Virus record (IMG/VR): IMGVR_UViG_2706794662_000004
Reading direction: 5' to 3' (one strand)
Length of the DNA: 46,219 nucleotides
Origin: a virus
Taxonomy: Duplodnaviria > Heunggongvirae > Uroviricota > Caudoviricetes
Positions 4,180-46,219 of the stretch are shown here, piece by piece (the first letter of the stretch is position 1; each line of letters begins with the position of its first letter). Below the pieces are notes generated by a model. The model had not been told where the DNA came from, made no database searches, and worked only from the letters and a program-made list of their open reading frames with translations. The position numbers and the translations under genes are program-made.

Positions 4180-4371
4180 TTACTCCCCGTTCACCGAAAA
4201 ATCACGATAGAAACGTTTCCACATACGATAAGTCTGCGCGAGTTGTTCACCACGAAACATCGCCTTCCTGGCCTTCATGTTTTCCTTGTGAGACTTTCGA
4301 TCTATGAACCAAAACCATTGCTGGAACACACAAAGCAAGAGACACAAAGATAATATCCACTGATTACCCAT
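4180..4371 (-). CDS. Small membrane protein (63 aa) translationally coupled to repA
   Basis: Internal Met (MGNQWILSLCLLLCVFQQWFWF...) whose ATG at 4371-4369 overlaps the repA stop codon; the longer 102-aa reading overlaps repA by 125 nt. Confidence 0.35.
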   Translation of the reverse strand: MGNQWILSLCLLLCVFQQWFWFIDRKSHKENMKARKAMFRGEQLAQTYRMWKRFYRDFSVNGE

Positions 4372-7300
4372 AGAAAGCGCCCTGCTCTTCGTAGCTGCAT
4401 GAGCTATTCCCGGTAATGTATTCTCGTAACCGCCGCAGTTCATTGCTGGACAAGTGATCCATGAACTCTGTGAGGTACAGAGATGCAAACGTCATAGCTA
4501 TGCTGGTTGATGACCATGATGACATAGTGGCCAGCTCCTCACCGGAAAGCGCACTCATCGCCCAGGACTCAGGAACAGCCACCGGCAATACGGCCAAAGC
4601 CTCAGAAATTACTGAATGAGGGGCGTTTTGAACCTGCTCGTTTGTGGATCGCGTTTTATCATCCATATATATATTGAGATCCAAATCGCGATCCATTTCG
4701 ATGGCTGTCTTCTCGGCTTTACGCGTTTTTAGGGTTAGGCCATCTTTCTGACGCTGAACAAGAATATCCAGCATAAATGCCGCTGATTCAGGCTCAACAA
4801 AACGCAAGGTTGGACGCTTATCGCCGTCTCTGCCGCGACGTTTACCTGTTTTAAGGCCAAGAGAGTCGCAAATGTTTTTAAACAACGCTTCCGGCACTTT
4901 AGGCTTCCCTTTTGGCGTCATAAAACCACCAATGTGCAGAACGTTATTCAACAGGTCACGGCGTTCGGCTGTCATGAGATTATCTCGAGCGAATTTGAGA
5001 CGCTCCTGAGTCGCCTCGCCGGTCATAGTCTCAGGGTTGATACCGCAGTCGATAAAGTACTGCCGGAGAGTTGCTGATTTAAGCGCATAGAAACCGCGCG
5101 CCCCGACTTCAACAGTAGGAGTAGCTTTTACCTTGTGATCGATTATTCCAGGGAATTTAGTTTTAAAGACATCATCAGCCTGCTCGCGAGTCATCGCGGT
5201 CACTACAAAATATTGCCACTGTCCCGCCTGACGGTATGCGTAGGTAAAATTGATGGCTGCTTCTTCCCGGTCGTAACGACGAGCTGTTACCTCATCTAAA
5301 AGCATTGTTTCATAGCGGCGAACTTTGTCTCGAGCACCATCGAAATAGAATTTCAGTGTGCCTTCTTCAACCGGTAGTTTCAGTTCGTTTTCAATATCCC
5401 AGCGGACAAGTTTTGCCTGTTCTTCAAGCGTCAGCGCGCGTTTTTTTAGCAGTTCTTCACGCTCTGATTCTTGTGGAGTTTCTGTATTGAGGTGCAGATC
5501 CAGTGTCTGTTCCCACACAATATCCCGCGCTTCTTTACGCAGATCTTTACCGATATCATTCGCAGCATAATCGGTGCCCAGCGGCGATACCTTATAACCG
5601 TCGCTGTGCATGATGCAGATCATGTTGCTGGCGTAGTCGTTACGCGCAGTCGCTTCAATTGCGGCTGCTTTAATTTTCATCCTGGTAAAGTCGGTATTGG
5701 CCACCCCCATTGATATACGGTCGCCATCGAAAATGACATCCGTCAGTTCACCGTTCATACCTGCGGTAGCAAGCAATGCCTGGGCGAATGCTCGTTCTAT
5801 TTTTTGCGGGTCAGTTTCACGTTTTGCACGAGCTTTATCAAAGCCGATAATAAATTCTTTTGCTGTACGGTCGCGGCGTAGCATTTGCACTGCGTCGCTG
5901 GGTACAACTTCACCACAGAACATGCCGAAATGACGGTCAAAATGTTTTTGCTCAATCGACACGCCGGATGAAATAGACGGGCTATAAATCAGGCCGTCGT
6001 ATTTTTTGACCATCTTTTTCGGTTGATTGGTAAATGCTTCAACTTCTGGCTCTGGTTTGTTTTTCTGGTTTACACACAGAAATTTCTTACCAGGAAAATG
6101 CATTCTCAGGGTGGCTGTCACATCTTCTGCAAAGGTGGAGCTGTCGGTGGCCAACATGATTTTTTCGCCATCCGATACAGCTTTCACCACCTCGGTCATG
6201 ATGCGATCTTTTTCTGTATAAAAAACCCGGATTGGCTCACCTGTTTCGCGGTTGCGAACATCAACAGGTAATTCAATTACGTGGATCTGCAGCCATGCCG
6301 GTAAACCTAGTTCTTCACGGCGTTTCATAGCCAGTTCAGCCAGGTCAACCAGCAGATCGTTCGCATCAGCATCCACCATGATTGGGTGTTGTTCCGTTCT
6401 GGCCAGCGCGTCAATTAGCGTATTGAATACAGCCACCGGGTTTTCCATAGCCCGACCGGAAAGAACGGCACGTAGCCCTTGTGTGGCCTCGTCAAAGCCA
6501 AAATAGTCGTGCTGGCGCATCAACGGTTGCCAGCAGTTTTTAACAATCGAGTTTATGCAGATGGTCAGTTTACTGGCGTATGGAGCCATTTCCTGATAGC
6601 CAGGGTCCTGATAGTGCAGGATATCGGCTTTTACACCTTTTCCTTCAGTCATCATTTCCCACAGGCCACCAATAAGGGAAACACGGTGAGCTACAGAGAT
6701 ACCGCGTTCTGAGCTATGCATTAACGGTCGTAACAATCCAGTAGATTTGCCGGAACCCATACCAGCACGAACGATGACGATCCCCTGTAGTGATTGCACG
6801 TACTTCAGGACGTCATCGGTCATTACCGAAGTTTCAAAACGCTTATAGGTGATATGTTGAGGGCGTTTATTGGGATCAGTTATGCGTTCGCTGAAAGAGC
6901 GCGGAGCCTGGGCAATACGGCACTTTTTATTCAGGCGACGGGCAATGTGGTCTTTTACCGTAGCGCGATAGATATTTTCCAGCCCCATTTCACGCAGAAC
7001 GATGCAGAACATGTTAAACAAATCTGACGGACTGTTAGGAACCGGACAGGTTAGCATGCCAATATCCACCGCTCTCAGCAGCTCTTTGGCAAAAGTACGA
7101 CGGTTATCCCGCTTAATTGTCTTCAGGCGGTTGAGCGTCAGAGATAGCAAATCAGTGCCGGTTTTCAGGCGGTTTGCTGTTGCAAATAGTTGACGTGCTG
7201 TTTCACGAAGTCCACGTAGTTTGTGCAGGTCGTTGAAGTCACTGCACTCCATTTGCGGATCGTCTTCAAAAGTTGGATAGACGCAGCGGACATCGTTGAA

Positions 7301-8359
7301 TTTCGATAAGATTTCATAGCCAGTCCGCAGGCCGGTATTCCCTTTTCCTTCTGTGGCTGATTTCCGGTCATTATCCAGTGCGCAGGTGATTTTTGCCGCC
7401 GGGTACATGTTTACCAGTTGTTCCACAACATGAACCATGTTGTTAGCGGATACAGCGACAACCACAGCGTCAAAGCGTTTATCTTTTTTCGTGGCAAGCC
7501 AGATGGATGCACCAGTAGCAAAACCTTCTGTAACAGCGATGTTTTGCGCCCCTTTCAGCTCACCGATAACAAAGCAGGCACCGACGAAATCGCCGCTGGT
7601 TACTGCGCTGGTCTGGTATTTCCCACCTTGTTTGTCGATTCGCTGCCAACCCACAATACGACCATCGTAACGACCGTCCAGGTGAGCCAGAGGGATAGCC
7701 ATATATGTGGTTGGCCCCCGGTTCCATTTCGCACTGTCGTGACTGGTCACGCGACGCACATCACATGAACTAAAAACGTCACGAATACCTTTTTTAATCG
7801 CATATGGCCATGAGCCGTCTTCTGCAGGAGCATGTTCCCACGCGCTGTGGAATGCCAGCCATCCCAGCAAACGTTCATGGTCCATTTGGTTGTTTTTCAG
7901 GTCATTAATTCGTTTTTGTTCTTCACGGCGACGACGTGCTTCGGCCTGACGTTTTATTCTTGCCCGTTCTTCTTCCGGTTGTGCGACCACGGTCGCATTA
8001 TTCCGTTGTTGCTCACGGCGATATTCAGAAAACAGGAAGGAGAAACCGCTCCATGAGCCAGCATCGCTGCCTTTATGGACGAAGTTAATGAACGGGTAAT
8101 CAATCCCTTTGCTGTGTTCCAGCCGAGAGTAAATTTCTACGCGTCCTTTGAGGCTCTTTTCGAGAGCTTCTGGAGATGTTTTATTGTATGAAGAGTAACG
8201 CTCAACACCCCCGCGAGGGTTGAGTTGGATGTTGTCGGAACAGGCAGACCAGTTGATACCAGCCATCTGTGCCAGCTCGGTTAGTTCATCCCGTGCTGCT
8301 TCAATTAGCGAGAACGGATCGCTGCCAAAGCGATCCGCATAGAAATCGTTTAATGTCAT
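4364..8359 (-). CDS. repA: Multifunctional replication protein RepA (primase-helicase, 1331 aa)
   Basis: Size close to N15 RepA (about 1324 aa as I recall); Walker A GMGSGKST in the central helicase part; position upstream of the cB immunity region as in N15. Confidence 0.85.
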   Translation of the reverse strand: MTLNDFYADRFGSDPFSLIEAARDELTELAQMAGINWSACSDNIQLNPRGGVERYSSYNKTSPEALEKSLKGRVEIYSRLEHSKGIDYPFINFVHKGSDAGSWSGFSFLFSEYRREQQRNNATVVAQPEEERARIKRQAEARRRREEQKRINDLKNNQMDHERLLGWLAFHSAWEHAPAEDGSWPYAIKKGIRDVFSSCDVRRVTSHDSAKWNRGPTTYMAIPLAHLDGRYDGRIVGWQRIDKQGGKYQTSAVTSGDFVGACFVIGELKGAQNIAVTEGFATGASIWLATKKDKRFDAVVVAVSANNMVHVVEQLVNMYPAAKITCALDNDRKSATEGKGNTGLRTGYEILSKFNDVRCVYPTFEDDPQMECSDFNDLHKLRGLRETARQLFATANRLKTGTDLLSLTLNRLKTIKRDNRRTFAKELLRAVDIGMLTCPVPNSPSDLFNMFCIVLREMGLENIYRATVKDHIARRLNKKCRIAQAPRSFSERITDPNKRPQHITYKRFETSVMTDDVLKYVQSLQGIVIVRAGMGSGKSTGLLRPLMHSSERGISVAHRVSLIGGLWEMMTEGKGVKADILHYQDPGYQEMAPYASKLTICINSIVKNCWQPLMRQHDYFGFDEATQGLRAVLSGRAMENPVAVFNTLIDALARTEQHPIMVDADANDLLVDLAELAMKRREELGLPAWLQIHVIELPVDVRNRETGEPIRVFYTEKDRIMTEVVKAVSDGEKIMLATDSSTFAEDVTATLRMHFPGKKFLCVNQKNKPEPEVEAFTNQPKKMVKKYDGLIYSPSISSGVSIEQKHFDRHFGMFCGEVVPSDAVQMLRRDRTAKEFIIGFDKARAKRETDPQKIERAFAQALLATAGMNGELTDVIFDGDRISMGVANTDFTRMKIKAAAIEATARNDYASNMICIMHSDGYKVSPLGTDYAANDIGKDLRKEARDIVWEQTLDLHLNTETPQESEREELLKKRALTLEEQAKLVRWDIENELKLPVEEGTLKFYFDGARDKVRRYETMLLDEVTARRYDREEAAINFTYAYRQAGQWQYFVVTAMTREQADDVFKTKFPGIIDHKVKATPTVEVGARGFYALKSATLRQYFIDCGINPETMTGEATQERLKFARDNLMTAERRDLLNNVLHIGGFMTPKGKPKVPEALFKNICDSLGLKTGKRRGRDGDKRPTLRFVEPESAAFMLDILVQRQKDGLTLKTRKAEKTAIEMDRDLDLNIYMDDKTRSTNEQVQNAPHSVISEALAVLPVAVPESWAMSALSGEELATMSSWSSTSIAMTFASLYLTEFMDHLSSNELRRLREYITGNSSCSYEEQGAFYG
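7982..7997. promoter_or_regulatory. 16-bp perfect palindrome TGCGACCACGGTCGCA, candidate SopB centromere site (copy 1, inside repA)
   Basis: Exact palindrome, one of five copies; resembles the F sopC core TGGGACCACGGTCCCA. Confidence 0.5.
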
Positions 8360-8604: not shown

Positions 8605-9201
8605 TCATCTACCCTCAACCATGAATGATTTGATCGTTCCGACTATTTGGTGAACAAATTCAAGATCGCTTTTCCTGAAGATGGCGCGTTGTGAATTTGT
8701 TCCGTCCAGATAGTAATTTTCATCATCAAAACGGGCCAGGCGCTGGATGGTGATATTTCCTGCAGTATCACGAACCAGAACATCCTCGCCGGGGACCAGT
8801 TCCAGCGCAGAATCGACCAGGAGAAAATCGCCAGGCTGATAGTTTCCCTGCGCCAGATTGCTGATAGTTAACGCATAAACAGTATTGCGCTGGCTGATGA
8901 ATGGCAGGAATCGCTCAGTATTTGGAACCTGTCCTGGCTTCCACTCTTCATCAGGTCCACTTTCAGTTGTGCCAATAACAGGAATGCGATCAGGGTCATA
9001 TTCTGTCCCATACAGCACCCAATGCACTGGCTTGCGTAAGCATTTAGCCAGGGCAATACCTATCTCCAGTGACGGCATTACGTCGCCACGTTCTAAGTTT
9101 TGGACGCCTGCAATAGAGATATCGACAGCCTCAGCAACTTCTCGCAACGTCAGCTTCATCTCTAAACGGCGTGCTTTCAGTCGTTCGCCTCGTGTTTTCA
9201 T
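8605..9201 (-). CDS. cB: Prophage repressor CB (HTH plus S24 LexA/CI-like autopeptidase domain)
   Basis: 198-aa ORF with N-terminal HTH (LTLREVAEAVDISIAGVQNLERG) and a C-terminal CI/LexA-like domain; divergent from a cro-like gene across an operator region. Confidence 0.85.
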   Translation of the reverse strand: MKTRGERLKARRLEMKLTLREVAEAVDISIAGVQNLERGDVMPSLEIGIALAKCLRKPVHWVLYGTEYDPDRIPVIGTTESGPDEEWKPGQVPNTERFLPFISQRNTVYALTISNLAQGNYQPGDFLLVDSALELVPGEDVLVRDTAGNITIQRLARFDDENYYLDGTNSQRAIFRKSDLEFVHQIVGTIKSFMVEGR

Positions 9202-9292: not shown

Positions 9293-9514
9293 ATGAAACC
9301 AGAAGAACTTATTCGCCACTTTGGCAGTGTAGAAAAAGCAGCGGCAGGGGTAGGTGTAACACCCGGAGCTGTTTACCAATGGTTAACCGCTGGAGAGATT
9401 CCTTCATTGCGGCAAAGCGATATTGAAGTTCGTACTGCTTATAAGCTGAAGAGTGACTTTACAACTCGGCGGGTAAAGCAGTCGATTAAGGAGAGTCGTA
9501 AGCGTGGAGCTTGA
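9293..9514 (+). CDS. cro: Cro-like HTH regulator
   Basis: Small ORF divergent from cB with HTH GVTPGAVYQWL; start taken at ATG 9293 (MKPEELIRHF), the track start at 9266 being a TTG. Confidence 0.6.
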   Translation: MKPEELIRHFGSVEKAAAGVGVTPGAVYQWLTAGEIPSLRQSDIEVRTAYKLKSDFTTRRVKQSIKESRKRGA

Positions 9515-10214
9515 GTATATACGCAGCTGCGTCTCTACGGCATTGGCTGATGTTCATTATCGCCAGCGTGGCATTCTGGAGGTCCAGCTTGAGCAGATGC
9601 GTCTCGGTAGATCAGGACGGTTTAACAATAAACCAGTCCGGTCAATCAGTGTGGGGGATGATAACTCATACGAAGTGTCCGTTCCTGCTGAGCCGGTTAG
9701 ATTCCACCAGGGGAAAACATTTAAACAATCATCAATGTTGCTCACTGATATTGATTTTCAGAGCGCCAGCTGGCGCAGGGCTATTGGTCAGTTGAATAAC
9801 GAGGAATCAGCCTGGCTTTATTATTGCTACGGATGCAAGCCTGATTACAACAATGATGTGATTGTTTGTCAGTGGTTATGGCTTGATTTTCTGGTTGCTC
9901 ATTCGGGGGGCGGCTTTAAAAAAATGAAGGCCTCCACGAAAAAAGCCATGCGGAAATTGATTTATTACGCGGCACAGCAGGTTAAATCAGAACTTACGTG
10001 TGCTGAGGCAGTTGATGAGAGAGAACAGGACAGGCATCTGAGTCTTCTACTGAATATATCTATTGATAGCTGGAGACAAGATTATAAAGAACGCTGGCTT
10101 TTAATTAAGTCGCGATGTCTGAGCTTAAATCGAACTGCATTATTAAATGCGGCGGAGAAGCGCAGTGAAATCATCAAACGCCATCGGGCAGGAAGTGCCA
10201 TTCTGCCTTTGTAA
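9504..10214 (+). CDS. Putative late-gene regulator (Q antiterminator position), 236 aa
   Basis: Positional inference only: third gene of the cB-cro-Q arrangement reported for N15 immB; no motif confirmed by eye. Confidence 0.3.
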   Translation: MELEYIRSCVSTALADVHYRQRGILEVQLEQMRLGRSGRFNNKPVRSISVGDDNSYEVSVPAEPVRFHQGKTFKQSSMLLTDIDFQSASWRRAIGQLNNEESAWLYYCYGCKPDYNNDVIVCQWLWLDFLVAHSGGGFKKMKASTKKAMRKLIYYAAQQVKSELTCAEAVDEREQDRHLSLLLNISIDSWRQDYKERWLLIKSRCLSLNRTALLNAAEKRSEIIKRHRAGSAILPL

Positions 10215-13310: not shown

Positions 13311-13529
13311 ATGGTATTAGATTCAATGACTGAAGCACCTGTATCAACTCTTGAAGAACTCGGATCAAACCTAAAAGACATCGACGCCGTTTTGGATCTG
13401 GTTAGCGTTGCTCTGGCTTCTCCAGAAGCCAGCTTGCATCTTGGCGAGATTTCACGACTTGTTAGTATGTCGCGGGAGATTGCTCAGAATTGCCAACAAG
13501 TTATTGCTGTTGAGTGTTTACATCATTGA
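13311..13529 (+). CDS. Small acidic protein (72 aa), candidate SOS-inducible antirepressor (AntC-like by position)
   Basis: First ORF downstream of the LexA box and operator-like site; no recognisable domain; start uncertain (ATG 13311 or 13326). Confidence 0.35.
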   Translation: MVLDSMTEAPVSTLEELGSNLKDIDAVLDLVSVALASPEASLHLGEISRLVSMSREIAQNCQQVIAVECLHH

Positions 13530-13572
13530 TATACACCCCGCCCTTCTGGACGGGGTAGCGAAAAGGGTCTAA

Positions 13573-13860
13573 TCAATAGACGGCATTAATATTAATCGTT
13601 GCACCGCATGCTTGGGCATATTTTGATAAAGTTTTCATGCTTGCCCCTAAAGGATTGCTTTCCAGGCGGCTGATAGCTGACGGGCGCAATCCCATTCGTT
13701 CAGCCAGAGCTGACTTCGTTAAACCTGCTCTTTCCCTCATTTCGTATAACATTTCGACCATCTCCAGCTCTTTATCGGCCTCTTCATATCCTTTGATGGC
13801 TTCTGGAGTGTTGAGAAGTTTTTCTTTTACTTCGTTAAACGGGATGCCTTTCGCTTTCAT
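13573..13860 (-). CDS. HTH (XRE-family) antitoxin, HigA-like
   Basis: 95-aa ORF with HTH (LTKSALAERMGLRPSAISRLE) directly downstream of and overlapping a RelE/HigB-like toxin ORF. Confidence 0.65.
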   Translation of the reverse strand: MKAKGIPFNEVKEKLLNTPEAIKGYEEADKELEMVEMLYEMRERAGLTKSALAERMGLRPSAISRLESNPLGASMKTLSKYAQACGATININAVY

Positions 13861-14171
13861 CAGTTCATCTCCTTCAGGCGAGTTCTGGCGATTTCGATAG
13901 CCTTCACCGGTGTTTTCTGTGTCTTTTTTACAAATGCATGCAATAGATAAATTTCGTTACCAGTCGCGTAGGCGTACAGCGTTCTTGCGATGTTTTTATC
14001 CCCTACTCGTAGTTCAAAAAGCCCTCCACCTATTACACGGCTATGGGGCATCTTCAGTTTGTTGCCTTCTTTCTCCAGTCGCTCAATTAATCTGGTCATG
14101 CGACCTCGCAAATCATCTGGTAGTTCAAGCAGTTCATCCAGTGCTGCAGGGTGGGTTATCACGTTAAACAT
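13860..14171 (-). CDS. RelE/ParE-superfamily toxin (HigB/Gp49-like)
   Basis: 103-aa ORF; toxin-first gene order with overlapping start/stop to the HTH antitoxin; sequence resembles the phage Gp49/HigB-like family as I recall it. Confidence 0.6.
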   Translation of the reverse strand: MFNVITHPAALDELLELPDDLRGRMTRLIERLEKEGNKLKMPHSRVIGGGLFELRVGDKNIARTLYAYATGNEIYLLHAFVKKTQKTPVKAIEIARTRLKEMN

Positions 14172-14229
14172 ATTATAGCCTCCATATCCATAAAATACAC
14201 CAAAACAAGAAAACAGCGCAAATTAAAAA

Positions 14230-14247
14230 TTTCACTAAAAAGTGAAA
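14230..14247. promoter_or_regulatory. Perfect inverted repeat tttcactaaaaagtgaaa in the toxin-antitoxin promoter region (candidate autoregulatory operator)
   Basis: 7-bp arms with 4-bp spacer about 60 bp upstream of the toxin start. Confidence 0.4.
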
Positions 14248-14336
14248 AATAACACTGGATGTGTTCGTTTGGCAGAGTTACAGTTCGTGTCATTGAGGGG
14301 CAATAACCAACTAACTATATGAATTTGGAGGATATT

Positions 14337-14558
14337 ATGAATTATCAAGGTAACGAAAAAATGCGCGACGACGTTGCGGAGATAGCTAACGAACTGTATG
14401 AGTTGTGGAAGAAGGTTGAACGTTTCGAAAAGGAATATGGTTTCAACAGTACCAACCTAGCAGACCGACTGGCTGGTCGCTTAGTTGGGACTATGGGGCC
14501 AAAACTGGCTGAGTTGAACCGCTTTATGGCTGATGTTGATTTCCAGTTTCAAGATTGA
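14337..14558 (+). CDS. Hypothetical protein (73 aa)
   Basis: ORF with GGAGG RBS before ATG 14337 (track start 14319 is upstream of the RBS). Confidence 0.45.
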   Translation: MNYQGNEKMRDDVAEIANELYELWKKVERFEKEYGFNSTNLADRLAGRLVGTMGPKLAELNRFMADVDFQFQD

Positions 14559-32968: not shown

Positions 32969-33294
32969 AGACCTTCCGCTGGAAAGTGAAACCCGGTATG
33001 GATGTGGCTTCGGTCCCTTCTGTAAGAAAGGTGCGCTTTGGTGATGGCTATTCTCAGCGAGCGCCTGCCGGGCTGAATGCCAACCTGAAAACGTACAGCG
33101 TGACGCTTTCTGTCCCCCGTGAGGAGGCCACGGTACTGGAGTCGTTTCTGGAAGAGCACGGGGGCTGGAAATCCTTTCTGTGGACGCCGCCTTATGAGTG
33201 GCGGCAGATAAAGGTGACCTGCGCAAAATGGTCGTCGCGGGTCAGTATGCTGCGTGTTGAGTTCAGCGCAGAGTTTGAACAGGTGGTGAACTGA
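32965..33294 (+). CDS. M: Tail tip protein M
   Basis: 109-aa ORF coupled to H and L. Confidence 0.85.
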   Translation: MKTFRWKVKPGMDVASVPSVRKVRFGDGYSQRAPAGLNANLKTYSVTLSVPREEATVLESFLEEHGGWKSFLWTPPYEWRQIKVTCAKWSSRVSMLRVEFSAEFEQVVN

Positions 33295-43587: not shown

Positions 43588-44553
43588 TTAATTATCAGTA
43601 GATTGTTCCTCTAGTAACAACTCAATTCTGCTTAGTATTTCTTTAGATATTTTGCGGCTATCAATTTTTATAGTTACAAAATTACCTTTATATCTAGCCG
43701 TGATCCCTTCCCCATATTTTTTCTCGTCTTTTGTTTTTTCCTCGTCGCCAACCAGAACAGAGTCAGATAATATTTGTATAATCCGTGAAGCTTCTAAATC
43801 CTCGCCGTTTTTTTTAATTACTAGAAGATGATGAGCAGCATTGCTCATGGCAGCCATGTTTTTTTTGTAAACCTTAAACAAAGAATCTCCAGCACGAGCT
43901 GACAGTTCTCCTGGATGATTGAAGATAGCTAATATATCTTTTGGTAGACCAGCTGTATTAATACAGCGAGTGATAATATTTCTATCTATATTTTCAGCCT
44001 CGGCTAATGCTTTAACGTTACCATCAAAGTCATTTAGCTTGCGTAAGTATCTCTTTCCTCTTTCGTATGCACTAATAGGTCTATAATCGTTACCAATTTG
44101 GGATAACCAATGCATCTGTTCATCGTCGAGATCACCAATTAAGACGCGATAGTCACATCCTGTTAATATCGCTGCTTTTCTTCTACGTGAGCCGTCAGCG
44201 ACTTCAACGATTCCAGATACTTTTCTGGCGAAAGCTGGATTTTGTTGTCCAGACGTTAGAAAAGATGGGATTAAATCGGCTAGAGAGGATTCATTTAATA
44301 AATCTTGATCGCGTTCATTACCTAGCCATACCATTGTTGCCATTTCAACTTTATCTGCGGGAATTGTCTCTAACTTAAAGTTAACATTACGTCCGCATAC
44401 TGGCAAAGTTATGCTGTTACCGGTTAATGAACTCAGTTGACGTTTTAAATCACCAACCATAGGTGATACGGGCTGATGTTCAGGGGCATGATGATTATTA
44501 CTCATAATGCGATTAATATCTGGAGCATTTTTTAGAAGAGAGCGCTGTTTCAT
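43588..44553 (-). CDS. sopB: Partition protein SopB (ParB family)
   Basis: 321-aa ORF immediately downstream of and overlapping sopA; ParB-like features. Confidence 0.75.
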   Translation of the reverse strand: MKQRSLLKNAPDINRIMSNNHHAPEHQPVSPMVGDLKRQLSSLTGNSITLPVCGRNVNFKLETIPADKVEMATMVWLGNERDQDLLNESSLADLIPSFLTSGQQNPAFARKVSGIVEVADGSRRRKAAILTGCDYRVLIGDLDDEQMHWLSQIGNDYRPISAYERGKRYLRKLNDFDGNVKALAEAENIDRNIITRCINTAGLPKDILAIFNHPGELSARAGDSLFKVYKKNMAAMSNAAHHLLVIKKNGEDLEASRIIQILSDSVLVGDEEKTKDEKKYGEGITARYKGNFVTIKIDSRKISKEILSRIELLLEEQSTDN

Positions 44554-45719
44554 TATTCGTTCTCCCAGCGAGGTTTTATTAGATCATCAAAAATTTCTCG
44601 GCAAACAGGGTCCCATATAGAAACAGCATTTCTCCATGCATTCAATGTTGAACGTTGGTTTGCTGCTTGTTCAAATACTGTTCTCATTTTTATCTGGCCT
44701 TTACCTACTTCATCGGTAACGCGTACAACCTGACGTAATACCATTGATCCCCATGTATTTCTTATTTGTTCTTCCATCCATCGTGATTGATTCCCTGTAG
44801 TGAGACTATATTTAGTCAGAAGTAAGCGAACGGTTGGCTCAAATCCACCTAGGTCAACGCTTTCCAATAGATCGAGAAGCATTGTGAAAAACTGTAGAAC
44901 AGAAGCGTAATCAAATAATTCTGCAGGTGTAGCAACAACAATAACGTCAGCGGCACAAACAACGTTAATGGTTCCTGTACCGAGGTTCGGAGCACTATCT
45001 ATAACGATAACATCGTAGTTATCCCAAACTGATTCAATAGCTGCGCGCAGCATAAGGTGTGGAGGATGAGGCAATTTACCCTGAGCATGATATTGCATGA
45101 GATCTGTTTCTATACGATGTAAGGCTAGGCAGCTAGGGATAATGTCTAGCCCAGGCCAACATGTTGGCTTTATAGCATATTCAGCGTTATCGCGTTCTCC
45201 TAAGTAAAATGGCAGTAAAGTATCCTCGGCATGGATATGTAAATCAGGAACATAACCGTGATACATAGAGGCCGTGCCTTGAGGATCGTTACCTTCAACC
45301 AAAAGAACACGATGACCTTGTAATGCTAACCATTGAGCTTGATGTACCGCAGACGATGTTTTATAAACGCCGCCTTTGTGTGACATAACGGCAAGCACAA
45401 CAGGGTTTTTATCTTGTGGTCGTTGGTTTGGGTTGCCAAAAACTGCTCGCATACTGTTGATTTGATCTATGGTATAACCAGCACGACGTTCAATTCTTCC
45501 TCTCATTTCAAAGTCAGGTGCAGGTAAACGCCCGCTCTTCTCAGCATCTCTAATTGCTTGAGGAGTTACACCAATTAAATCTGCTACTTCAGTTATACCC
45601 CATCGGCGGGTGATACGCCGAGCTTCAGGACTATCATCACCGAATTGAGCGATAGCAATTGCTTGGGTCATTTCTTGACCTCTCGTAACACAATCTTGCA
45701 ATAACTTTTTCAAAGACAT
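44553..45719 (-). CDS. sopA: Partition ATPase SopA (ParA family)
   Basis: 388-aa ORF with Walker A KGGVYKTS and N-terminal HTH; extensive identity to F SopA as I recall it. Confidence 0.9.
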   Translation of the reverse strand: MSLKKLLQDCVTRGQEMTQAIAIAQFGDDSPEARRITRRWGITEVADLIGVTPQAIRDAEKSGRLPAPDFEMRGRIERRAGYTIDQINSMRAVFGNPNQRPQDKNPVVLAVMSHKGGVYKTSSAVHQAQWLALQGHRVLLVEGNDPQGTASMYHGYVPDLHIHAEDTLLPFYLGERDNAEYAIKPTCWPGLDIIPSCLALHRIETDLMQYHAQGKLPHPPHLMLRAAIESVWDNYDVIVIDSAPNLGTGTINVVCAADVIVVATPAELFDYASVLQFFTMLLDLLESVDLGGFEPTVRLLLTKYSLTTGNQSRWMEEQIRNTWGSMVLRQVVRVTDEVGKGQIKMRTVFEQAANQRSTLNAWRNAVSIWDPVCREIFDDLIKPRWENE

Positions 45720-45994: not shown

Positions 45995-46132
45995 CCTTAC
46001 AAATATAAGAACACAAATACAGAACATAAAAACCAAGTAATAACACAAACACAATAAAGAACACAAATAAAGAATTAAAACAAATGTTAAACAAAACAGT
46101 ACGCAAACTGAGAACATTACATTAAATAAGAA
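45995..46132. repeat. Cluster of AGAACA(C/T)-type direct repeats next to the right telomere
   Basis: At least six copies of agaaca within about 140 bp; the left telomere-proximal region (110-160) carries the complementary tgttct motif. Confidence 0.4.
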
Positions 46133-46218
46133 CACTAATTAAGAACATAACGAAACATAATTCCCCATTATACGCGCGTATAATGGGGAATTATGTTTCG
46201 TTATGTTCTTAATTAGTG
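46133..46218. repeat. Right telomere palindrome (hairpin telR read through the turn); centre at 46175/46176
   Basis: 86-bp perfect palindrome sharing the same 40-bp core as the left end but with different outer arms. Confidence 0.7.
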
Positions 46219-46219
46219 T

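Follow-up and report, generated by a model that had tools for sequence, protein, structure and literature searches.

Organization of the locus

The DNA analyzed here is IMG/VR virus record IMGVR_UViG_2706794662_000004, a stretch of 46,219 nucleotides (nt) that we refer to in its entirety as the window. It represents an N15-like linear plasmid prophage (a Ravinvirus-type phage-plasmid), and our analysis centered on a two-gene toxin-antitoxin module carried by it, the counterpart of N15 gp49-gp48, together with a palindrome lying upstream of the module. The relevant features are as follows.

13860-14171, minus strand: open reading frame (ORF) of the toxin gene, 103 amino acids, ATG start; ortholog of N15 gp49, Gp49/Tad branch of the RelE superfamily
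13573-13860, minus strand: ORF of the antitoxin gene, 95 amino acids; ortholog of N15 gp48 (Ata-like), with an XRE-type helix-turn-helix (HTH)
14192-14221, minus strand: predicted sigma-70 operon promoter, with -35 TTGCGC (14221-14216), read from the phage alignment
14199-14194 or 14197-14192, minus strand: predicted -10, either TGTATT (16-nt spacer) or TATTTT (18-nt spacer)
14230-14247, strandless: perfect palindrome TTTCACT-AAAA-AGTGAAA, probable operator for an antitoxin dimer

An earlier note on this DNA had described a 103-residue toxin ORF followed by an overlapping 95-residue XRE-HTH ORF. Both were recovered, on the minus strand, which that note had left out. The toxin gene comes first (14171-13860) and the antitoxin gene directly after it (13860-13573), the stop codon of the former and the ATG of the latter overlapping by one base (TGATG). 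Shine-Dalgarno sequences precede both the toxin gene (GGAGG, 14183-14179) and the antitoxin gene (AAGGAG, 13874-13869). The next ORF past the antitoxin gene is convergent, and the module consists of two genes, with no chaperone gene. The span 13573-14247 considered in the earlier note runs from the antitoxin stop codon through the end of the palindrome. The toxin-first order was likewise found at every other homologous locus with a readable antitoxin ORF.

The toxin is a Gp49/Tad-type member of the RelE superfamily

The toxin had been described as RelE/HigB-like and the module as HigBA-type, with the proviso that a sequence search might place the protein in an unrelated non-toxin family. Instead, the search returned a toxin family: the protein matched Pfam PF05973 ('Gp49') with an E-value of 2.5e-29 and 101.6 bits (cut-off 23.9) across profile positions 1-90 of 90, and the same domain was present in 119 of the 120 best toxin homologs listed. 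At E-values up to 0.1, the Pfam scan otherwise returned only a sub-threshold match to PilZNR, and neither a classical HigB family nor a ParE family. NCBIfam gave no family-level match to the toxin, the best being TIGR02683 at 15 bits against a cut-off of 62.85.

An AlphaFold2 model of the toxin, built on 28 homologs (predicted local distance difference test score, pLDDT, 87.4; predicted template modeling score, pTM, 0.82), ran from a strand through two helices and four antiparallel strands to a long C-terminal helix, which is typical of Gp49-like toxins (PMC9098466). When this model was compared with the Protein Data Bank (PDB) using Foldseek, the top match was Mycobacterium tuberculosis HigB1, also named HigB(TAC), bound to the 70S ribosome with cspA mRNA (7nbu_Y, E 4e-6, template modeling (TM) score 0.79). 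The other top match was the free HigB(TAC) toxin (7awk), followed by Streptococcus pneumoniae HigB (6af4) and then by RelE and YoeB. Foldseek probabilities were 1.00 for HigB1, HigB, RelE and YoeB, identifying the fold as RelE-like alpha/beta. Similarity to the HigB folds of Escherichia coli and Shigella was weak (E 0.05-0.12, TM 0.53-0.59). The best PDB match by sequence was S. pneumoniae HigB (E 5.5e-5).

Classical HigBA modules (Proteus vulgaris Rts1, E. coli) share with the window module a toxin-first order, a RelE-superfamily fold and an HTH antitoxin, but they belong to another branch, the window toxin scoring above the Pfam cut-off for Gp49 only. Gp49-domain toxins have been noted to bear little similarity to these classical HigB proteins (PMC5906591). 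The term 'HigB-like' is therefore valid for gene order and general fold only, and the toxin is a member of the Gp49/Tad branch. HigB(TAC) (Rv1955; PDB 7nbu, 7awk) resembles the window toxin in its long C-terminal helix, its catalytic residues and a toxin-first arrangement with an Xre-HTH antitoxin; it differs in sequence (~27% identity) and in that the TAC (toxin-antitoxin-chaperone) system requires a SecB-like chaperone as a third gene. S. pneumoniae HigBA (6af3/6af4) and HigBA2 of Acinetobacter baumannii plasmid pAB120 share ~23-24% identity, and their operator sequences are unrelated to the window palindrome. A. baumannii HigBA2 comprises a Gp49-type RNase toxin and an antitoxin that represses its own operon with the toxin as corepressor, and it stabilizes a plasmid (PMC5906591).

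HigB(TAC)'s catalytic pocket has been assigned to K58, E66, R68, N73, R77, F93, K95, Q98 and K99 (PMC9098466). These positions align, in the same order, with R45, E53, R55, N60, R63, F80, K82, Q85 and K86 of the window toxin, R63 sitting one position off in the alignment, so that all nine proposed residues have identical or conservative counterparts. Five of them (E53, R55, R63, F80 and K82) are invariant over the 28 toxin homologs. Since the modeled fold is closest to HigB(TAC) and the catalytic residues are conserved, we consider it probable that the toxin is no gyrase poison but an mRNA endonuclease that depends on the ribosome.

The antitoxin matched HTH_3 in Pfam (E 1.6e-12). Its layout is an N-terminal toxin-binding part followed by the XRE-type HTH, in which PSAISRLE is the predicted recognition helix. 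Its sequence matches in the PDB were S. pneumoniae HigA (6af3_B), M. tuberculosis HigA2 (7ewc) and HipB.

The module is orthologous to N15 gp49-gp48

By tblastn, the window toxin shares 92% identity with N15 gp49 and 91% with phiKO2 Gp49, and it is 100% identical to that of PhiR46_1 and YDC107_1. The N15 locus is orthologous to that of the window: in both, gp46 and gp47 are followed by gp48/gp49 on the opposite strand and then by gp50, gp51 and a methylase gene. The N15 proteins have the same sizes (103 and 95 amino acids), and their genes the same one-base overlap. The recognition helices of the two antitoxins are identical, as are the two palindromes, which lie at equal distances from the ATG. 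The loci differ by ~8% at the amino-acid level, and megablast misses N15 because the DNA is too diverged.

N15 gp49 has been cited both as an example and as the namesake of the Tad toxin family, PF05973/DUF891/COG4679 (PMC2701414), and its locus has been described as carrying the toxin upstream of an Xre-HTH antitoxin (PMC3581621). Dziewit et al. 2007 (J Bacteriol 189:1983) present, in their title, a toxin-antitoxin stabilizing system of N15 that is homologous to tad-ata of Paracoccus plasmid pAMI2. Tad-Ata of Paracoccus aminophilus pAMI2, the prototype of the group (COG4679/DUF891 toxin, COG5606/COG1396 antitoxin), resembles the window module in its toxin-first order, Gp49-family toxin, XRE-HTH antitoxin and association with plasmid stabilization (PMC2701414, PMC3832669). 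It differs in being distant in sequence, so that it was not among the close matches, and in residing on a circular plasmid of an alphaproteobacterium. Taken together, these findings identify the module as a type II toxin-antitoxin cassette of the Tad-Ata type, namely the gp49-gp48 pair as carried by an N15-like linear plasmid prophage, a reading to which we assign a probability of about 0.9. The proposal that it serves as an addiction module on such a prophage agrees with the literature on the 92%-identical N15 pair and is supported.

A conserved palindrome is a candidate operator

The palindrome lies 59-76 nt upstream of the toxin ATG and is made up of 7-nt arms and a 4-nt spacer. The window holds no second perfect copy, and a search for further copies returned one match with 2 mismatches (32974-32991), which is at chance level. 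A lone local copy points to a site local to the module and not to the motif of a global regulator. Considered alone, the palindrome is within chance expectation: when the 165-nt intergenic region was shuffled 5000 times with dinucleotides preserved, a perfect 7-bp inverted repeat whose loop did not exceed 10 nt occurred at least once in 667 of the shuffles (13%), and the window as a whole contains 108 such repeats.

We therefore rely on comparison across cassettes. The palindrome forms part of the best-conserved intergenic block in N15, phiKO2, YDC107_1, PhiR46_1, KpLi5 and Kpn74, and its only changes among these phages are one in the spacer (phiKO2) and one in an arm (KpLi5). We also compared more distant cassettes from chromosomes and from other N15-like elements, with 60-77% toxin identity. 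In many of these, a palindrome was present equally far from the ATG (start -71 to -83), with both half-sites altered symmetrically, as follows.

Xenorhabdus: TTTCTCT-TTTT-AGAGAAA (nearly identical in Erwinia sp. MMLR14_017)
Pectobacterium: ATTTATCT-TTTT-AGATAAAT
P21: TTTCTATT-TT-AATAGAAA
Winslowiella: AATTTCACTA-TT-TAGTGAAATT
E. tasmaniensis: TTTAGTTA and TAACTAAA directly abutting, zero loop
Yersinia: AAATTAACT-TAAT-AGTTAATTT

Overall, 10 of 20 non-redundant homologous cassettes contained a perfect inverted repeat of at least 7 bp at -95 to -40, compared with a mean of 1.4 in shuffled sequences (maximum 5 in 300 shuffles) and 0-1 in three control windows. These comparisons indicate that the palindrome is a real feature of the cassette. 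It is still present in chromosomal copies of the cassette that lack gp50 and every other N15 gene, and is therefore to be assigned to the toxin-antitoxin cassette instead of the divergent promoter of gp50. Readings of the palindrome as a sopC-like centromere or as an operator of the CB repressor were rejected for a like reason, the palindrome moving with the cassette into chromosomal loci without N15 genes.

The sequence of the half-site also varied with that of the antitoxin. The recognition helix PSAISRLE occurs with the half-site core CAC, PSAITRLE with CTC (two cassettes), PPAINRLE with TTAAC (two chromosomal cassettes at different loci) and PSTITQLE with AGTT. This pattern is suggestive of a half-site core that tracks the recognition helix, in what is a small sample of related cassettes. 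Judged from these sequences and from analogy with related systems, the best reading is that an antitoxin dimer binds the palindrome and autoregulates the operon. A more far-reaching proposal holds that, with the palindrome as operator, the half-site cores (CAC, CTC, ATC, CTA, TAAC and others) have co-diversified with the recognition helix into a mutually orthogonal series of repressor-operator pairs, that control is exerted other than by occlusion of the core promoter, and that the module additionally acts in abortive-infection defense; we regard this combination as doubtful.

A related arrangement was observed in the lambdoid Shigella phage 75/02 Stx (~1400-1425 of the locus analyzed), in which a perfect palindrome, ATAACAAATTTGTTAT, immediately precedes the toxin gene of a distant Gp49-type module (48% identity). 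The palindrome differs in sequence from that of the window, while the layout is the same.

Position of the palindrome relative to the predicted promoter

The promoter of the operon was read from the alignment of related phages. In N15, phiKO2 and most of the distant cassettes, TTGnnn-17-TATATT is conserved between the palindrome and the Shine-Dalgarno sequence. The N15 promoter reads TTGTGT-17-TATATT, to which the window promoter is a weaker match. Compared with N15, phiKO2 and the Klebsiella phages, an E. coli subgroup consisting of the window, PhiR46_1 and YDC107_1 has a -10 of TGTATT in place of TATATT and a spacer one base shorter. On sequence grounds, this suggests weaker or shifted use of the toxin promoter in the subgroup.

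Between the palindrome and the predicted -35, which lies downstream of it, are 6-9 nt, and counted from the predicted start the center of the palindrome is at -51.5 to -52.5. A position near -52 falls in the zone of the UP-element and the C-terminal domain of the RNA polymerase alpha subunit (alpha-CTD), outside the core promoter. In the Edaphovirga and P39 cassettes, the palindrome is instead centered on the -35. The earlier note had placed a palindromic operator in the promoter region; the repeat is indeed perfect and conserved, but it lies upstream of the -35 and not over the core promoter, and its role as operator is a prediction.

A consensus scan for promoters and terminators did not call the predicted toxin promoter and called no terminator. 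The only promoter-like site it called on the minus strand was TTCATA-16-TATAGT (14341-14314), which we rejected as the operon promoter: neither N15 nor phiKO2 retains its -10, and it is a 9/12 match of a kind expected 1.8 times by chance in the region. The 2007 abstract on the N15 system reportedly mentions two promoters. No internal antitoxin promoter was found within the toxin gene of the window, and N15 and phiKO2 have a weak TGGAAA-16-GAAAAT-like match at +94. A 9-nt inverted repeat with arms on either side of the promoter and start codon, CATCCAGTG/CACTGGATG, was also set aside, as it is approximately at chance level in 300 nt and is shorter in N15.

Could the palindrome instead be a terminator or attenuator hairpin and no operator? 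Read on the toxin strand (TTTCACT-TTTT-AGTGAAA plus a T-run), it would either stop minus-strand transcription arriving from the gp50 side or attenuate a longer toxin leader. The GenBank/RefSeq record of N15 labels exactly these 21 nt a putative rho-independent terminator on the strand of gene 49, and a U-run, UUUUUAAUUU, comes after the stem on the toxin strand. The symmetric (compensatory) changes in the arms suit a hairpin as well as a dimer-binding site, and the promoter-like match at 14341-14314 lies upstream on the same strand. That match, however, is open to the objections given above, and there is no upstream gene in that direction, since gp50 and gp51 diverge. The stem itself is weak (7 bp with 2 G-C pairs, -6.2 kcal/mol) and fails the terminator scan. 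In nearly all cassettes, TTGnnn-17-TATATT falls between the palindrome and the ATG, and with a promoter located downstream of it the palindrome would not be transcribed. Finally, the zero-loop palindromes of homologs, such as that of E. tasmaniensis, are poor hairpins but good dimer sites, and half-site identity tracks the recognition helix of the antitoxin. A hairpin function is therefore unlikely, and we favor the palindrome as a binding site for the antitoxin.

Several other elements were noted in and around this region. A 44-residue minus-strand ORF (14159-14293) spans the toxin promoter and the palindrome; its counterparts in PhiR46_1 and KpLi5 are labeled 'hypothetical protein', and the likeliest explanation is that a gene was called spuriously across a regulatory region. 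Between the palindrome and gp50 is a non-coding block (14262-14300; ACACGAACTGTAACTCTG on the minus strand) that hardly varies among the seven N15-like phages compared and is better conserved than the intergenic DNA on either side. The block is missing from the chromosomal cassette copies and so belongs to the gp50 side. It may be a promoter or regulator site for gp50-gp51, and no good sigma-70 match was seen within it. The divergent ribosome-binding site and start regions of the toxin gene and gp50 also form a 21-nt inverted repeat with 81% complementarity (14172-14192 and 14318-14338; ATTATAGCCTCCATATCCATA and TATGAATTTGGAGGATATTAT), which probably reflects two alike Shine-Dalgarno/start contexts. 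At the other end of the module lies the following feature.

13534-13557, minus strand: G+C-rich hairpin between the antitoxin gene, whose stop codon lies 16 nt upstream, and a convergent ORF of 72 amino acids (13311-13529)

A 56-nt stretch containing this hairpin and its flanks folds on the minus strand with -19.2 kcal/mol (z -2.2). The hairpin has no U-tract after it and was not called by the terminator scan. It may serve as a shared transcript end or as an element of RNA stability.

The host element and the distribution of the cassette

The linear plasmid-prophage setting that had been proposed for the module was confirmed by the presence of TelN, RepA, SopA and SopB and by the hairpin-type ends of the window. 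The following genes were assigned using Pfam.

246-2159: TelN protelomerase, four TelK/TelN domains
4364-8359, minus strand: RepA-type primase/helicase
8605-9201, minus strand: S24/HTH repressor
9504-10214: Q antiterminator
43588-44553, minus strand: SopB (SopB_HTH)
44553-45719, minus strand: SopA, ParA-type

Each end of the window is a perfect inverted duplication without a loop (1-54 versus 55-108, and 46132-46175 versus 46176-46219), and the telomere core CCCATTATACGCGCGTATAATGGG is present in both. These duplications look like assembly read-through of covalently closed hairpin telomeres, which would place the true ends at 54/55 and 46175/46176. The first 25 kb of the window are 97% identical to Escherichia phage PhiR46_1, and E. 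coli plasmid NZ_LR883007.1 (46,243 bp) carries a module with 100% identity to that of the window. We found the module in 16 of 5,426 complete E. coli genomes, each time on a plasmid of ~46-75 kb and never in a chromosome. In these genomes, the PGAP labels are 'type II toxin-antitoxin system RelE/ParE family toxin' for the toxin and HTH protein for its partner.

Further observations concern related cassettes elsewhere. The module of Klebsiella phage Kpn74 (1501-2087 of its locus) contains frameshifts in both the toxin and the antitoxin gene, in a record full of tiny ORFs; either sequencing error or decay of the module could account for them. At a Photorhabdus locus (701-2093), two divergent Gp49-HTH cassettes stand back to back and have one 184-nt intergenic region in common. 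Related cassettes in Buttiauxella and Edaphovirga occupy what seems to be the same chromosomal neighborhood, between hycI and formate-dehydrogenase/Fe-S genes, which suggests an old insertion or a preferred site.

Proposed function of the module in prophage maintenance

Gene anatomy, family, fold, conservation of the catalytic residues and the comparative behavior of the palindrome are results of this work, and they can be combined with knowledge of related systems in the following model. A weak sigma-70 promoter just upstream of the toxin gene would produce a single, short-leader mRNA for toxin and antitoxin, and translation of the antitoxin would be coupled to that of the toxin through the TGATG overlap. 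The toxin, most likely a ribonuclease of the Gp49 branch of the RelE superfamily, would enter the ribosomal A site and cleave mRNA, leading to growth arrest, while the N-terminal part of the antitoxin would bind and neutralize it. Via its C-terminal XRE HTH, an antitoxin dimer would occupy TTTCACT-N4-AGTGAAA beside the promoter and thereby autoregulate the operon. Upon loss of the prophage, the labile antitoxin would disappear and the remaining toxin would arrest the cell, such that post-segregational killing backs up SopAB partition. The RNase target, the operator function, the position of the promoter and the lability of the antitoxin are predictions of this model, and the role in plasmid stabilization is carried over from the literature on the N15 ortholog. 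The plasmid-only occurrence of the module in E. coli fits a role in post-segregational killing.

Several observations weigh against parts of this model. With respect to toxicity, the Gp49-type paralogs HigB2 and HigB3 of M. tuberculosis are non-toxic and lack K58, N73, F93 and K99 (PMC9098466), so that the fold alone is no proof of toxicity; the window toxin keeps the counterparts of these four residues. With respect to expression, the TGTATT -10 is without the key A at position 2, and a degraded -10 together with a shorter spacer means that expression could be low. With respect to regulation, a site centered at -52, upstream of the -35, makes simple steric repression of RNA polymerase not obvious, and the palindrome is imperfect in two close relatives, Pseudocitrobacter and KpLi5. 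With respect to addiction, close relatives of the cassette reside in chromosomes as well. In addition, deletion of a homologous pair, s044/s045 of SXT, left the stability of SXT intact (PMC2654960). According to a secondary account of Dziewit et al. 2007, stabilization by the SXT pair had been measured on a heterologous unstable plasmid; the deletion result thus implies that stabilization of test plasmids need not carry over to a native element. In the literature, where Dziewit et al. 2007 is represented by its title and by citing papers, we found no test in a native N15-type prophage.

The last set of observations would also fit a rival reading in which the module served mainly in abortive-infection defense of the lysogen, or in control of lysis and lysogeny, and not in plasmid addiction. 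Plasmid addiction is irrelevant in a chromosome, where close cassettes are found, and the SXT deletion was without effect on stability. Moreover, PADLOC returned a weak partial match of the toxin to NsnC (28 bits, confined to the C-terminal 54 residues, 43-95) and partial matches of the HTH protein to HTH_VI, RmrA and a CapH-like protein. These matches reflect generic RelE-like or HTH domains only, with no defense-system architecture, so the suggestion of abortive infection in the earlier note found no support. The N15 ortholog is reported as a stabilizing system in the title of Dziewit et al. 2007, and in E. coli the module is confined to plasmid prophages. We accordingly think it improbable that defense or lysis-lysogeny control is the principal role, and retain prophage maintenance as the preferred one.

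As to the target of the toxin, the family name used by NCBI is only 'RelE/ParE family toxin'; in the 2007 study of the N15 system, toxin overexpression reportedly resulted in cell elongation, and its authors are reported to have suggested that different toxins might have different targets. A ParE-like gyrase poison, or a toxin with some other non-RNase target, is nevertheless very improbable, as ParE structures ranked 27 or lower in Foldseek with far weaker matches (TM 0.45-0.5, E above 0.02) than HigB1, HigB, RelE and YoeB, the window toxin retains the catalytic residues of the HigB(TAC) RNase, and the Gp49-type HigB2 of A. baumannii is a ribonuclease (PMC5906591).

The module described here is already known as N15 gp49/gp48, and its finding is a rediscovery; the N15 ortholog was characterized in 2007. 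Relative to that work, as represented by its title and by citing papers, the only addition, a modest one, is the comparative case for the palindrome at -52 as the operator of the antitoxin. For the biology of the element, the findings mean that an N15-like prophage would have a second layer of maintenance besides SopAB. For the family, comparison of the palindromes provides a concrete candidate operator in a group of toxin-antitoxin systems that has received less regulatory study than classical HigBA or RelBE.

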